This document shows, one piece after another, positions 3,246-39,268 of a stretch of DNA of 64,000 bases (the stretch's first letter is position 1; every line of letters starts with the position of its first letter). This DNA is from a virus (Duplodnaviria > Heunggongvirae > Uroviricota > Caudoviricetes), in the IMG/VR virus record IMGVR_UViG_3300042892_003817. The stretch is one strand, 5' to 3'. A model generated the notes under the pieces. The model was not told the DNA's origin. It was given only the letters and a program-made list of their open reading frames with translations, and made no database searches. Both the position numbers and the translations under genes were made by a program.

Positions 3246-3958
3246 TAGTTCGGAAATATCCCCTTTTTAATCATTTTTGATACTACTCTTGAAGAGGCAG
3301 TTTCTAATGACTTTTTGGTAGATACTCCGATTGTTGATTGATTAAATTTAATATCGTCGAGTCCATCTAATAAGCTTGCCTTCTTCACTGTAACTGCTTC
3401 ACCGGATCCTGATCCAGTAATTATTTCACCGCTCTGTGCATCCACAAATCTTACTTGTAACCCTAATATTGTTTTTTGTCTTATCTCAGCTCCAGAGGTT
3501 GAAACTTCTTCATCCTCACCTATGCTGAAATCATAGACTTCTATATAAACAAAATACTTTGCTAATATAACATTTCCTTTAACTTCTATTTTATTTTCTG
3601 ATATACCCTTAGCTGAAGCTATGTGTTGAGCAATCATTTTTTGTTTTATTTCTTCTCTGTCTTCTGTAAACTTAAATCTATTTGTGGACTCTAAATACTC
3701 TAATACTATATTTGATACTCCTAAACCAACTCTTTTATCTTTTAGTTCAGGGTACATTTCATATAATTCCTCATTGATACCAATCTTAAGGATCTGAATA
3801 GGGATGACTATGTCTCCGCTATAATCAGATACAACCTCTAATGATTGCTTCTTTTCAAAATCGGCTTGGTAGACTTCAGTTTTAACAGACCCTACTTTTT
3901 GAGCAGAGCCTATTATGCTTGCTAATAAAAATAGTATAAATATTAATTTTCTTACCAT
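3245..3958 (-). CDS. csgG: CsgG/HfaB-family outer-membrane secretion channel protein
   Basis: Signal peptide; G.G.SN.....L..TNRF...E.RE and LQVRFVD..SGEI..GSG.GE patterns typical of CsgG family; ATG at 3958 in TAATG overlap with upstream stop. Confidence 0.75.
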   Translation of the reverse strand: MVRKLIFILFLLASIIGSAQKVGSVKTEVYQADFEKKQSLEVVSDYSGDIVIPIQILKIGINEELYEMYPELKDKRVGLGVSNIVLEYLESTNRFKFTEDREEIKQKMIAQHIASAKGISENKIEVKGNVILAKYFVYIEVYDFSIGEDEEVSTSGAEIRQKTILGLQVRFVDAQSGEIITGSGSGEAVTVKKASLLDGLDDIKFNQSTIGVSTKKSLETASSRVVSKMIKKGIFPN

Positions 3959-5216: not shown

Positions 5217-5540
5217 TTACCAAGATTCTTTTTGAGCAGGAGCTGGTGCTGGTGCTGCTTGTTGAACTGGAGCAGGAGCGGCTTTAGCTGAATTAGAGTT
5301 GTTTGATTGTTGTTTTTGTTGGTTGGTGTTGTTGTTCTCCAAATTAACATTAATGACAGGTGCTGCTGCTGGTGCTGGTGCTACTTGTTCTGTTTTCACT
5401 TCTTCTTTATCTTCTGAGTGACCTCCGAATAAAGTTGTTGATACCCAAATACCTGCTCCACCGATTACTGTAGTTAGAGTTCCGATTAAGGTTTTTTTCA
5501 ATCCTGATAATCCACCTTCGTTGTTTGTTTCTTCTGACAT
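5217..5540 (-). CDS. Membrane-anchored low-complexity protein
   Basis: TLIGTLTTVIGGAGIWVSTTLFGG segment then N/Q/P/A-rich tail. Confidence 0.65.
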   Translation of the reverse strand: MSEETNNEGGLSGLKKTLIGTLTTVIGGAGIWVSTTLFGGHSEDKEEVKTEQVAPAPAAAPVINVNLENNNTNQQKQQSNNSNSAKAAPAPVQQAAPAPAPAQKESW

Positions 5541-5543
5541 AGC

Positions 5544-6275
5544 TTATTTTTTTATTACTTTAAATGTTTTTGCGAAGTTCTTACTTCTTATATTTAATAA
5601 ATAGTTACCACTTGGGTAAGCAGTTAGATCTCCATAAGTAGTATTCGGTCCTTTTGCAAAACGTTCTTTCTTTATACTTAGTTGATTTCCTCCCATGTCG
5701 TAAACTGCAATTTCATAATCTCCACTCACTGGTAAAGACATCTCCATTGTTATAATTCCATCTGTAGGTACTGGATATACTTTTCCGTGAATTCCATCTT
5801 CATCTAAAGGAGCTGCATACCTATTATAGTTGATATAACCATCTGTATTAGTTACAGCGATATCCCACCCTTGTACATTTCCAGCTGTCTTTCTTCCTAC
5901 GGTTATAGGAGTTGTAGTCCAGTTAGGATTAAGTACTGTAAATTTTAATATGAATAATTCTGTTGGAGCTGTTACAGTATGCTGTCCATGTGTTCTATCA
6001 TATCCTCCCCATCTTACTTTTCCACTTCCGGTATCCATTGTATAGGTTAACCAGGTTTGTGCTTTTTCAGATAAAATTATTTCTGAGAATTGTAAAATGC
6101 TTTGATCGTAATTTAAAGCAAATTCTAAACTCCCTACTGCATTTCCATTTGTTAGAATAGCTACAGGTAGATCTATGGTATTAGACGGAGACACTGTAAT
6201 CCCAGGCACTTGAAATTGTACCTGGGAATAGAGTGAATTTATTGATAACAGTGCTATGATTATATAGCGTAGCAT
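5544..6275 (-). CDS. Cohesin-domain protein with type IX secretion (Por) C-terminal sorting domain
   Basis: Signal peptide; cohesin-like V..PV...GSLEF.LNYD..IL; CTD KVYPVP...IAVYDMGG...G.YLL.I......KVIKK. Confidence 0.85.
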   Translation of the reverse strand: MLRYIIIALLSINSLYSQVQFQVPGITVSPSNTIDLPVAILTNGNAVGSLEFALNYDQSILQFSEIILSEKAQTWLTYTMDTGSGKVRWGGYDRTHGQHTVTAPTELFILKFTVLNPNWTTTPITVGRKTAGNVQGWDIAVTNTDGYINYNRYAAPLDEDGIHGKVYPVPTDGIITMEMSLPVSGDYEIAVYDMGGNQLSIKKERFAKGPNTTYGDLTAYPSGNYLLNIRSKNFAKTFKVIKK

Positions 6276-6276
6276 A

Positions 6277-7368
6277 TTAGTTGCGTCCTGTTCCGTTTGC
6301 GTCTCCTAATACTAGAAGATAGTAATTGGCTGCTGTTGTATTGTTAATGTTAGCTGATAAGAATGTTGCTACCCCTGGAATTGTTGCTGACTGATCTGTT
6401 GTAGCTGCTGCAATAGTGTTGTATTGAGCTTCTGTAAAGAATAGTAAATCAGGTGTGTTTGGGTAAACTGATAAACCTTGAGCCAATCTAGAGAATACTG
6501 TATATGAATCTGAAATTGTTATTCCATTTGCTTGGTTAGGGTTAGCAGTATAGAATTGAGTTCCAGTTGGAGCTTGTATTCCTGTAGCGATTTGAGCAAT
6601 CATATTTGCATCTGCTGCTGCTAATGCTCCTGGTGCTGTTAATCCTGGTGCTACTTTTACTCTAATTTGCCAGTAGTTTTGATCTAAGTTAGTTGTGAAT
6701 GATGCTACTCCTGTTGTAGTTGCTGTATTAACTGTCATTACATCTACCCAAGTTGTTCCGTTTGAAGATTTTTGTAATATTACTGGAACGTCTGAAGCTG
6801 GGTTGGTTGGATCATTTAAGAATGTAGCAGCATAGTTAAATACTGGTTCTGTGAACGCTCCTCCGTAATTATGTAATCCTAGTGTAGTATCAGTTCCATT
6901 TGCTAGAGTACCGTAAGCCGGGTAAGCTGTCGCTCCTGTAAACGCCATTGCTGTTACTGCACCGTTTGTATAACCTGCTTTAAATGGTAAAGCTACGTTG
7001 AACATTGCTCCGTCAGCAATATTGAAAGCAGCATCTGCTCCTGTGTAAACCCATGTAACTGTTACATTTCCTTCAGTAGCATTTACTAATGTTTGGAAAT
7101 AATTGTTTGCTTCAGTTCCAGTGTAAGTCACTGTAGGAGAAGCAAATACGTTTTTGTCGTACCAAAATCTGTACTGTACTGCTTTGATAGCTGTAGAACC
7201 AGCATTATCATAATAAATTGCAACGTTTGTAGGTGTTGCTCCAAGTGGTGCCAGGTTGTAACTAGCGTCAAATATTAAGTAAGGCTTAGTAGCATCAGGT
7301 GCGATAGTTTGTGCAAATCCTGTTAATGATACTAAAACTAAACTCAATACTAAAAGTAATTTTTTCAT
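6277..7368 (-). CDS. Exported cohesin-like + Ig-like + dockerin-like protein
   Basis: Signal peptide; AVQYRFWYDKNV cohesin-like strand; ANPNQANGITISDSY dockerin-like loop; C-terminal half paralogous to 7447-8445. Confidence 0.7.
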   Translation of the reverse strand: MKKLLLVLSLVLVSLTGFAQTIAPDATKPYLIFDASYNLAPLGATPTNVAIYYDNAGSTAIKAVQYRFWYDKNVFASPTVTYTGTEANNYFQTLVNATEGNVTVTWVYTGADAAFNIADGAMFNVALPFKAGYTNGAVTAMAFTGATAYPAYGTLANGTDTTLGLHNYGGAFTEPVFNYAATFLNDPTNPASDVPVILQKSSNGTTWVDVMTVNTATTTGVASFTTNLDQNYWQIRVKVAPGLTAPGALAAADANMIAQIATGIQAPTGTQFYTANPNQANGITISDSYTVFSRLAQGLSVYPNTPDLLFFTEAQYNTIAAATTDQSATIPGVATFLSANINNTTAANYYLLVLGDANGTGRN

Positions 7369-7429
7369 TTCTTTTGTTTTTAAGTTATTTTTATTTCACA
7401 ACCGGGTGCTTATGCACTCTCATACCTTT

Positions 7430-37132: not shown

Positions 37133-37474
37133 CTATTGTGTTAATTCTGCTAATGGTTTTGACCACTCCTCTGTTGATAATATAGTAAGAATTTCTTCAT
37201 GAGTGTACTCTGTATCTCCTTCTTGGTAGATACTCGGTCTTCCGTACACCCCTGCAAGAGTTGTATGACTTGTTTCTTCCTGTGTTTCAGGATTAATACC
37301 GGTATGTACTATATCCTCTAGTATTTCATTTATTTCATACTTAATAAAAGTCTTAGTACCATCTACCGATAGTCTTAAACTCTCTGGTGATGATTCTAAT
37401 ATCTGATTGAAATCAATCGATCCTGTTGCTGTGGTTGGTATTATTAACCATCTTCTATTCTCAAATGTACTCAT
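37133..37474 (-). CDS. Hypothetical tail-region protein
   Basis: 113-aa ORF (..SL..S.DGTKT..KY...Y.HEEIL..L...EW); no homing-endonuclease motif. Confidence 0.75.
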
Positions 37475-37504
37475 ATTCTTTGAATATTAATTTAAAACTA
37501 TTAC

Positions 37505-37775
37505 GGGTTTCCCCTAAGTGTTTATCCTATGCAACGAGCACACACTTTTGTTAACTATGTATTTCTACACAGGTCGGACTATATCATCATGCTTTATAAG
37601 CATGTTGGGCGCTCTAGCTGGTTATTAAGGAAACTTTATTCCTCCAGTAGTCTCTGAACCTTCTTGAGATGTATCTCAAGCTTGGCTGCTGATTTTCCAA
37701 TCTTTAACATTGTTACACTTCGGTAGTTAAAGCTCTAAGGACGTTCCAGCAATTCACCCAATTTAAACAGGACAT
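37505..37775 (-). ncRNA. Free-standing group I intron-type ribozyme core (IA-like, with P7.1)
   Basis: P AAUUGCUGGAA (37744-37754), Q AAUCAGCAGC (37685-37694), R GUUCAGAGACUA (37648-37659), S UGAUAUAGUCC (37576-37586); P3, P4, P6, P7, P7.1, P8, P9 all pair. Confidence 0.9.
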
Positions 37776-37798
37776 ATATAAATAGCACTAAAAATTAT

Positions 37799-39268
37799 CT
37801 AAGACACATAAGGTGCTACTATTGTTTTATAAAACTCTTCTCCGTATGTTGATGTTCCTCCATTTGGAAATTCAAAACGAAGTGGACCACCTCTTTTACC
37901 TTTATATACAGTAACTGATGTAAACCATTTTCCATTCTTATAAGAAGTCTGTACTCCATATTCAGTAAGCCTAGTAGGTGTTCCAATATCGTCTCTAGCT
38001 ACTTCTATGTAATTGTCTGGGGATTGAAAACTTGCATCTGGTTTTTGGTATATAGTATAGGCTGGTGTTGTGGTAGCCATGTTTTCGCCACTTATATCTC
38101 CTTCTGTTCCGTCTGCTTCCCACCTTCTATTATACCTAGTAGCTCTATTACTTACTGCAAAGTAATACGTATCATACTCTATTCCAAATCTTGCATTATA
38201 GAAATCAAAATTCTGTTTTACTTCTGCTGCCGTTAGTGCTCTGTTGTATATTTTTGCTACTGGTATTTCTCCTCCTTGGAAATATGACCAACTCCTACCT
38301 ACTTGTATGTTAGTAGTTCCTATAAAAGATGCAATATTACTTGATCCTTGAAGTACTCCGTTTTTATAAATAAAAGCAGTTGTTCCATCATATACCCACA
38401 GTACGTGTACCATTTCGTTTAACGCAACTGATCCTGCAGCGTAATCAGCACTATAATGAGCGAAGTATATGTTCCCATTCCTAAGACCATTATGCATTCC
38501 TTGACGATATGCAGTTTGATCAGTTCCAAAAACCATATTATCCCCACTTATTGTATTAGTTACTTTAAATACGGCTTCCATTGTATATGGAGCATCATAA
38601 ATACCTAAAGCAGTAGCTGTCTTAGTAGTATTTATGTAATCATCGGTACCATCAAATACCATTTGAGCATTTGAATTAAAAGATACATTTGATAAATCTA
38701 ATGTACTGTTTCCTACTAATGGTAAAAGTCCTTGTGTTGCTGAACGAGTACCTGCTACGAATGGTGTTGTGTAAGATTTTAATTCTACTTGAGGATCATA
38801 TAGAGTAACAGCTCCACCAGTATCGAAATTTATATCTAAGAAGTAGTAAGGTGCAGCGTAAGAACCTCTACTACTATACCCTGCTAACCTCCCTGATGTT
38901 GCTGTGGAATAGTTGAGGCCTGTAATACCTACATCACACCAATCAATTGATAACCCTCCTATTAGGTTTTCAAAATACACACTACTGTTATATGTCGCTC
39001 CATCTATTAAATCAGGTTGGTTTGGATACAACCTAACGGTGCTCACTCCTGTACCATTATTTACAAATCTAAATTTACCATTTCCTAAATCTGTTTTGGT
39101 ACATCTTCCGTAGATATCTCCTCCGCCGTTTATAAGGTTTGTAGCTCCAGCGCTGTATAGTAGGTTTACTGTAGGTTGTCCTATATACGAATTTCTAGTA
39201 TCTCCTGTATCGTAAGCAAACACCGATCCTGATGTGACTGTTTTTCCGTATCCTTGTGCTACTGCCAT
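37799..39268 (-). CDS. LamG/concanavalin-A-like lectin domain tail protein (paralogue 2)
   Basis: FDGTDDYI...YTMEAVFK...H...VYDG....IY.NG...IYNRALT..EV.QNF. Confidence 0.85.
   Translation of the reverse strand: MAVAQGYGKTVTSGSVFAYDTGDTRNSYIGQPTVNLLYSAGATNLINGGGDIYGRCTKTDLGNGKFRFVNNGTGVSTVRLYPNQPDLIDGATYNSSVYFENLIGGLSIDWCDVGITGLNYSTATSGRLAGYSSRGSYAAPYYFLDINFDTGGAVTLYDPQVELKSYTTPFVAGTRSATQGLLPLVGNSTLDLSNVSFNSNAQMVFDGTDDYINTTKTATALGIYDAPYTMEAVFKVTNTISGDNMVFGTDQTAYRQGMHNGLRNGNIYFAHYSADYAAGSVALNEMVHVLWVYDGTTAFIYKNGVLQGSSNIASFIGTTNIQVGRSWSYFQGGEIPVAKIYNRALTAAEVKQNFDFYNARFGIEYDTYYFAVSNRATRYNRRWEADGTEGDISGENMATTTPAYTIYQKPDASFQSPDNYIEVARDDIGTPTRLTEYGVQTSYKNGKWFTSVTVYKGKRGGPLRFEFPNGGTSTYGEEFYKTIVAPYVS
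38646..38691. repeat. 46-bp exact direct repeat, copy A (copy B 39778-39823)
   Basis: gtaccatcaaataccatttgagcatttgaattaaaagatacatttg. Confidence 0.9.

Follow-up and report, generated by a model that had tools for sequence, protein, structure and literature searches.

The untranslated gap between two co-oriented tail genes of a phage of the Caudoviricetes holds a genuine, conserved group I ribozyme (37505-37784, minus strand), and we judge the chances to be somewhat better than even that it is a naturally circularly permuted one, in which P1 is formed back to front. Group I ribozymes are textbook selfish introns that remove themselves from genes, but this element probably cuts the message of the tail genes in two instead of splicing a gene, and it may furthermore release a 19-nt RNA circle by back-splicing. 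The case for the permuted order of its parts is strong on the structural side, built as it is on comparison of related sequences, and from this order we infer the chemical steps as well as the separation of cistrons as their biological point. The window, i.e. the whole stretch of 64,000 nucleotides that was analysed, is part of a 126-kb IMG/VR virus record (IMGVR_UViG_3300042892_003817) with one group I match, and a megablast search with the locus against GenBank phages gave no match.

The Rfam family RF00028 (Intron_gpI) matches positions 37555-37803 of the minus strand along the full model (model positions 1-253) with 89.8 bits and an E-value of 1.2e-21, the cut-off being 50 bits, and it is the sole Rfam family in 37300-37950 even at E<=10. 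All the helices listed in the initial annotation, which had described an intact group I core, can indeed be read in the sequence, namely P3 (UUGGGUG/CGCCCAA), P4, P5, P6/P6a, P7, P7.1, P8 and P9 with its GAAA loop; P7 is GAGACUA/UAGUCC with a bulged A and the guanosine-binding site, and J8/7 has the canonical sequence AUGAUGAUAUAGUCC. As a whole the core is of canonical build and resembles subgroup IA, with P7.1. In an alignment of 16 sequences (A3) compensatory changes are found in P3, P4, P5, P6a, P7.1, P8 and P9, and the J4/5 and J5/4 adenines are invariant. Since every core helix is kept by way of compensatory changes across the members, the RNA is under selection and not decaying, and the decay without covariation that the initial annotation had named as evidence against itself is not what the relatives display. 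The same observations bear on the notion that the RNA is catalytically inert, being either a decaying intron relic or a 3'-UTR structure that shields the upstream mRNA from exonucleases. An intergenic placement brings no need to splice, the element is found at the 3' end of a gene in every member, and one relative (L069) is altered at two key positions, all of which would suit an inert RNA; the core, the G-site, the J4/5 adenines, the G.U wobble, omega-G and P9.0 are however kept across lineages with many compensatory changes, and a mere stabiliser would not need catalytic features, so that we give this notion hardly any credence. The coordinates of the element and its surroundings are collected in Table 1.

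Table 1. Features of the ribozyme locus, in the order of transcription
Feature	Position	Strand	Remarks
Upstream gene, 489 aa, LamG-type tail protein	37799..39268	-	Laminin_G_3 at aa 206-351
TATTTATA, late-promoter-like motif	37777..37784	-	3-4 nt upstream of the guide/G1; 15 nt before P3
Guide strand U-GUCCUGU (internal-guide position)	37767..37774	-	G37773 is the G of the G.U; U37774 pairs with A37523
Catalytic core	37555..37766	-	J/UUAAA, P3, P4, P5, P6/P6a, P7, P7.1, P3', P8, P7', J7/9, P9; Rfam 89.8 bits
J7/9 and P9	G37575 A37574 C37573 (J7/9); 37572-37555 (P9)	-	Parts of the catalytic core
J9 segment UUAACAAAAGU and invariant G37543 (proposed omega-G)	37543..37554	-	G37545-U37544 pair with A37574-C37573 (P9.0)
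Mini-exon, 19 nt, UGUGCUCGUUGCAUAGGAU	37524..37542	-	Small hairpin, then 5'-exon-like AUAGGAU (37530-37524)
Predicted 5' splice site; predicted 3' splice site	U37524/A37523; G37543/U37542	-	From helix statistics
AA and ACACUU, strand past the predicted cut	37516..37523	-	Pairs with AAGUGU (37547-37542); outer stem, covaries
GGGGAAACCC hairpin	37505..37514	-	Would sit near the 5' end of the downstream product; window, L024a and L062 only
Downstream gene, 113 aa	37133..37474	-	83% identity to immuto gp222

The placement between genes, with no reading frame interrupted, is as the initial annotation had stated. The upstream ORF, whose protein ends ...EEFYKTIVAPYVS*, is closed by a TAG at 37801-37799, and the ATG of the downstream gene lies 325 nt past it, with an in-frame TAA five codons before; exons of an interrupted gene that splicing could join are thereby not seen, as the upstream gene ends at 37799 and the downstream gene starts at 37474. 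The endonuclease of a mobile intron, also denied by the initial annotation, is likewise not seen, there being no ORF of at least 40 aa on the ribozyme strand within 37505-37784 and no nuclease domain in the flanking proteins according to Pfam and PHROGs. That the 489-aa and 113-aa ORFs might be two exons of a single split gene can be ruled out, since their homologues are separate genes with a 12-nt spacer in Flavobacterium phage immuto, the nearest named relative of the window, and in five related contigs, the first gene ending ...RFNLS*. In ribozyme-free relatives the sequence TATTTAT(T/A)ATAT is found immediately before the ATG of the downstream gene. A marine metatranscriptome (X19), with a loose end at 37476, contains such a ribozyme-free allele, in which ...RFNLS* is followed by TATTTATTAAT abutting the ATG of the 113-aa gene.

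The upstream protein carries a C-terminal module of 125 aa (aa 365-489, about 37802-38176 on the minus strand), which is lacking in its immuto homologue gp221, a protein ending at aa ~364. In another relative (L006) the module has its counterpart at the C-terminal end of a stand-alone 220-aa gene (5300-5962, alignment E 4e-4), and this gene too has a ribozyme of the same family after it. Neither Pfam nor PHROGs gave a function for the module or for the 113-aa protein. In 15 relatives an ORF that likewise ends ...FY..IV.PYV* has the ribozyme after it without exception, an association suggesting joint movement of module and ribozyme.

More than 150 loci were gathered by pattern scans, two of them on viral contigs and one on metagenome contigs. 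The initial annotation had proposed to check whether the intergenic placement recurs in related phages, and it does: the ribozyme lies 6-59 nt past the stop codon of a long ORF in all 27 of the 27 members checked, and in the lineage of the window the distance is 9-25 nt and the ORF ends ...FY.(T/N)(I/L)(V/I).P(Y/W/F)(V/L)(P/S)*. The genes after the ribozyme differ between members, and the next ATG is in most of them found 24-70 nt past the predicted cut, which is the normal leader length in these phages; in the window the distance is 49 nt. One 8.3-kb contig (L024, identical to L100) has two diverged permuted ribozymes, at 7136-7411 and ~3560-3830, both on the minus strand, one of them after a fused LamG gene as in the window and the other after a separate FY-ending gene as in L006.

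In place of a P1 made by an upstream 5' exon and the guide, the element has a P1-like helix with a G.U wobble whose exon strand is found downstream of the core, GUCCUGU (37773-37767) being complementary to AUAGGAU (37530-37524). The pairing was counted in Python, both in the 16-sequence alignment and in a larger set of 25 distinct sequences from uncultured phages and immuto. In the alignment 15 of 16 sequences retain the G.U and the remaining one has A-U; the three pairs after it do not vary, and the fifth occurs as all four Watson-Crick pair types and as nothing else. Across the wobble from these, the position of U37774-A37523 is paired in 15/16, three pair types being represented. None of 20,000 shuffles reached the observed pairing, and the true register has 111 of 128 cells paired, against at most 52 when one strand is slid along the other. 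The larger set gives the same picture, with the G.U in 24/25 (A-U in L069), the next three pairs never broken, the fifth pair Watson-Crick in 25/25 (4 pair types) and the g-1/+1 pair present in 22/25 (5 pair types), and in other lineages the whole helix has changed in concert to GCC/GGU, GCCC/GGGU or GGCCGCA/UGCGGCU. A conserved wobble amid freely covarying pairs is the cleavage-site signature of group I ribozymes and reflects recognition of P1 by J4/5.

The initial annotation had noted that there is no room for a normal 5' exon, P1 and P2, and this holds, as only 13 nt separate G1 from P3. The guide is invariantly 14 nt from the GGGUG of P3 in the 16 sequences, the P2 hairpin is absent from the permuted members, and the G of GUCC is at a short and invariant distance from P3. 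The P1 proposed by the Rfam alignment (UAGAUAAU|...GCUAUUUA, with a 5' splice site 7 nt past the stop codon) contains many non-pairs, is not conserved in L028 and has no room in L033, L035 and L037, and the start of the model shifted from 37803 to 37841 between two runs. A P1 of UAUUUAUAU with GUUUAAA was also rejected, since it is without a G.U in L035 and L037 and since the UAAA acts as the usual J2/3. Furthermore, no conserved NGGAU was found upstream of the guide, and complements of GUCCN at distant upstream sites or in trans were at chance level and non-homologous only, and a 5' exon of either kind was discarded. The description of the element as exon-less, by contrast, cannot be upheld, since the guide has a conserved and covarying partner downstream, and omega-G and P9.0 are found between the core and this partner.

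These findings also weigh on the reading of the element as an ordinary cis-splicing intron in an untranslated spacer, where a cryptic AU-rich P1 would use the TATTTAT region as 5' exon, the 3' splice site would be the G at position -4 of the ATG, and splicing would leave a short spacer similar to the TAA-TATTTATAATAT-ATG of ribozyme-free relatives. It draws on the presence of TATTTAT(T/A)ATAT right before the same ATG in those relatives, on a G at -4 in the window, L024a and L023, and on the weak Rfam P1 near the stop codon. It is nevertheless a very improbable reading, because the only strand at the guide position is taken by a covarying downstream partner, because the AU-rich candidates for P1 vary between members and offer no G.U in L035 and L037, and because immuto has a terminator after the element. 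The G four bases before the ATG is moreover absent in L079, and nothing is conserved past the outer stem described below, for which reasons it was discarded as a 3' splice site. Ordinary cis-splicing had also been named by the initial annotation as an outcome that would speak against it, and assembled metatranscriptome contigs contain no spliced joints.

Returning to the permuted reading, the segment between P9 and the exon strand contains the proposed omega-G. The dinucleotide UG (U37544, G37543) is invariant in the 16-sequence alignment and is found nine to twelve bases past P9. J7/9 of the permuted members reads G-A-(C/A/U) and the bases before the invariant G read (G/U/A)-U; the P9.0 pair x2-y3 is A-U in 25/25 and x3-y2 is paired in 24/25, as C-G, A-U, U-A or U.G. 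P9.0 thus places G37543 as it places the omega-G of group I introns, and it does so upstream of the exon strand of P1. The mini-exon that lies between the two predicted sites measures 17-22 nt among members of the close lineage; in other lineages, as in L237, L171, L176 and L055, its length is 46-79 nt. In the outer stem the partner z of y2 is C/A/U in step with y2 (G/U/A) and with x3 of J7/9, and since y2 covaries both with J7/9 and with the outer stem, two mutually exclusive pairings are maintained, as expected of a two-step switch. No consistent P10-type pairing was found between the first bases of the mini-exon and the bases 5' of G1, and conserved sequence stops at the outer stem.

Along the RNA the order is accordingly 37773 (guide), 37543 (omega-G), 37542-37524 (mini-exon) and 37524|37523 (5' splice site), and it is the same in 25 distinct relatives, which is the permuted order of intron and exon. 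Because the partner of the guide is downstream of the core and omega-G with P9.0 lies between them, the element reads as a circularly permuted intron with an internal mini-exon of 19 nt.

The assignment of omega-G is aided by close relatives of canonical build (L025, L044, L045, L061, L103, L109 and L030), which are inserted in tRNA-Leu-like genes of uncultured phages that ARAGORN does not call in their split form; the insertion point in L030 is between D arm and anticodon stem. At the corresponding guide position these relatives have a strand that pairs with a true exon lying upstream (GGGAU|...GUCCC in L025, GACAU|...GUGUC in L030), and P2 comes after it. Their 3' splice site is ...AACA(A)CAUG|, with P9.0 being AUG/CAU in the same place as that of the proposed omega-G, and in L044 P9.0 covaries to CAC/GUG. 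As judged from this correspondence G37543 is homologous to the omega-G of the canonical relatives.

If the element works as its order implies, the first step would be an attack by free guanosine or GTP after U37524 of the G.U wobble, which would cut the polycistronic message 49 nt before the next ATG and give the new 5' end a G that is not templated. The strand past the cut, which until then would have held omega-G in the outer stem, would leave, whereupon P9.0 could form and omega-G could dock. In the second step the 3'-OH of U37524 would attack after G37543. The predicted products are an upstream mRNA with the folded ribozyme as its 3' end, a 19-nt circle, and a downstream mRNA with the added 5' G. 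In immuto and L037 a terminator hairpin is found ~12 nt past the cut site, and freeing the mRNA of the next gene is therefore not the universal role of these elements.

Several observations count against the permuted reading. A circle of 17-22 nt is very small, the covariation of P9.0 amounts to perhaps 2-3 independent changes, GGAU/GUCC itself is invariant beyond what the function of P1 explains, the ground state as predicted has omega-G37543 in a pair with C37520, and some contigs of relatives in the RNA assemblies run unbroken across both predicted sites (37445-37588 and 37424-37574). A rival reading is that the element only carries out the first step, i.e. that it is a self-cleaver that makes the GTP-dependent cut after U37524 with no back-splicing, and that omega-G and P9.0 serve in folding or in hydrolysis at G37543. 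Such a self-cleaver has the same evidence from the helix and the wobble in its favour, it avoids the sterically demanding 19-nt circle and fits with the missing P10, and it agrees with all conservation ending at the outer stem. It is however hard to explain why P9.0 and the invariant G are kept with covariation if there is no omega-G-dependent step, and the 46-79-nt mini-exons of other lineages would circularise unstrained; we therefore consider a function limited to the first step rather unlikely, though worth keeping in mind.

The assembled metatranscriptomes in which the element occurs (X19-X24) are of freshwater and marine origin, and they contain a contig that runs contiguously from the upstream gene through the TATTTATA motif into the ribozyme. 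Spliced or back-spliced joints were not found in the assembled Logan contigs, whose assembly word length exceeds the 19 nt of the predicted circle. What looked like the 5' end of an RNA at 37794 (marine X19) was dismissed, since a 30-nt de Bruijn overlap joins contigs with two different upstream genes to the ribozyme, and the end is thus a branch of the assembly and not an RNA end.

The TATTTATA motif looks like a late-promoter signal of the window phage. TATTTAT occurs 33 times on the coding (minus) strand of the window as against 8 times on the other, mostly in intergenic positions, ~21-33 nt before ATGs and often after terminator hairpins; copies of the form (C/A)TATTTATA start on the minus strand at, for example, 62274, 60392, 54227, 52575, 31293, 29120, 27510 and 24441, and no conserved element was found upstream of the copies in the window. 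The motif is kept 4-26 nt upstream of G1 in FY-type and L050-type relatives, even where the next gene has a copy of its own. A transcription start at the usual distance from the motif would fall inside the guide.

The motif could nonetheless be taken to mean that the ribozyme is a stand-alone non-coding RNA transcribed from TATTTATA, acting by trans cleavage or trans-splicing through GUCCUGU or by sensing guanosine, which comes near to the thinking of the initial annotation. The motif is promoter-like elsewhere in the window, it is retained before the ribozyme even where, as in L028 and L035, the next gene is provided with a copy as well, and in immuto the unit consists of motif, ribozyme and terminator. 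We nevertheless find a stand-alone RNA quite improbable in view of the facts that only 3-4 nt separate the motif from G1, so that the usual start would land in the guide, that the metatranscriptome contig reads through from the upstream gene, and that the guide partner is internal and covarying and no conserved external target was found. Of the new tasks that the initial annotation had envisaged for a domesticated ribozyme, mRNA processing is indeed the best fit, but trans-splicing is unsupported, as there is no conserved target of the guide elsewhere, and guanosine-responsive control finds no support beyond the ordinary need for G. Its observation is hence confirmed, and its interpretation as a whole is supported in part.

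Among known systems the element has most of its parts in common with canonical ORF-less IA introns of phages (T4 td, nrdB and nrdD, Twort orf142, and the relatives L025, L045, L061, L103, L109 and L030), with which it shares the core with P7.1, the G-site, J8/7, the GNRA loop of P9, the guide position and the UG after P9.0. In the canonical introns the 5' exon and the P1 loop are however upstream, P2 is present and splicing restores a gene, whereas the window element has its exon strand past omega-G, has no P2 and restores no gene. Engineered permuted intron-exon (PIE) constructs, derived from the T4 td and Anabaena tRNA-Leu introns, are used to make circular RNA. They have the same order of parts, with the 3' part of the intron and its omega-G first, then the exon and then the 5' splice site, and they are expected to yield the exon as a circle together with two linear pieces of intron; the window element differs in being natural and conserved, in having the break in loop L1 with nearly the whole ribozyme on one side, and in having a non-coding exon of 17-79 nt.

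A natural group I intron with a permuted precursor, as proposed for the window element, is the giant ND5-717 intron of mushroom-coral mitochondria, which is reported to be removed by back-splicing via a circular exon-containing RNA (Chi et al. 2019, PMC6545197). The permutation of the coral intron stems from transcription of a circular mitochondrial genome and involves real ND5 exons, whereas in the window the order is encoded in the DNA itself, the phage genome being linear, and a mere small hairpin serves as exon. Bacterial permuted group II introns (Roth et al. 2021, PMC8637638) likewise combine natural domain permutation with back-splicing and RNA circles, but they are ribozymes of another class and differ in their chemistry. 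GIR1 (PMC2219692) is derived from group I, lacks an upstream 5' exon, pairs a guide remnant internally in a P1-like helix with a G.U and processes RNA just upstream of an ORF, as is also proposed here; its core is however remodelled, with the P15 double pseudoknot and an altered J8/7, and it performs branching, whereas the core in the window is canonical, also in J8/7, and the Rfam search at E<=10 did not return the GIR1 family (RF01807). In Clostridioides difficile a c-di-GMP-II riboswitch and a group I ribozyme occupy an untranslated region and control the downstream ORF through a splice site near its start codon (Lee et al. 2010; PMC9481103), but in that system the parts are in normal order, an aptamer precedes the ribozyme and true splicing takes place. 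The window element has no aptamer, and no riboswitch family was found in 37300-37950 at E<=10 or in the whole window at gathering score. A literature search found no natural permuted group I ribozyme for phages or bacteria.

We tentatively extend the permuted reading to the relatives as a group, although we would sooner doubt than assert it at this breadth: they may form a phage family of natural permuted group I ribozymes that act as GTP-dependent intercistronic cutters of late polycistronic messages, just before the next structural gene, adding a guanosine (possibly GTP) to its 5' end and each releasing a circle of 17-79 nt. If true, these would be the first group I ribozymes of phages or bacteria selected for processing RNA or making circles and not for removing themselves from a gene. 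They would moreover represent a new natural reaction topology for the group I class, a natural counterpart of the PIE constructs for manufacture of circular RNA, and an addition, large and GTP-dependent, to the set of ribozymes found between structural genes of phages.

A few further observations concern individual loci. In the genome of the cultured phage immuto (MW353176) the predicted cut is at 145216|145217, and no intron or ncRNA feature is annotated at the ribozyme. The annotated CDS immuto35A_225 (L001 11043-11177), a 44-aa 'hypothetical protein', is located wholly inside the ribozyme at 144995-145223 and is probably not a gene. In L069 (473-743) an A replaces the wobble G and a U replaces the C partner of the proposed omega-G, and this copy may be decaying, or it may serve as a natural test for the permuted model. 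The GGGGAAACCC hairpin past the outer stem is absent from L023, L028 and L033. A further relative with P2, represented by L022, L029, L038 and L039, interrupts an apparent 3'-5' exonuclease domain of a DNA polymerase (...FILHNAKFDLKF).
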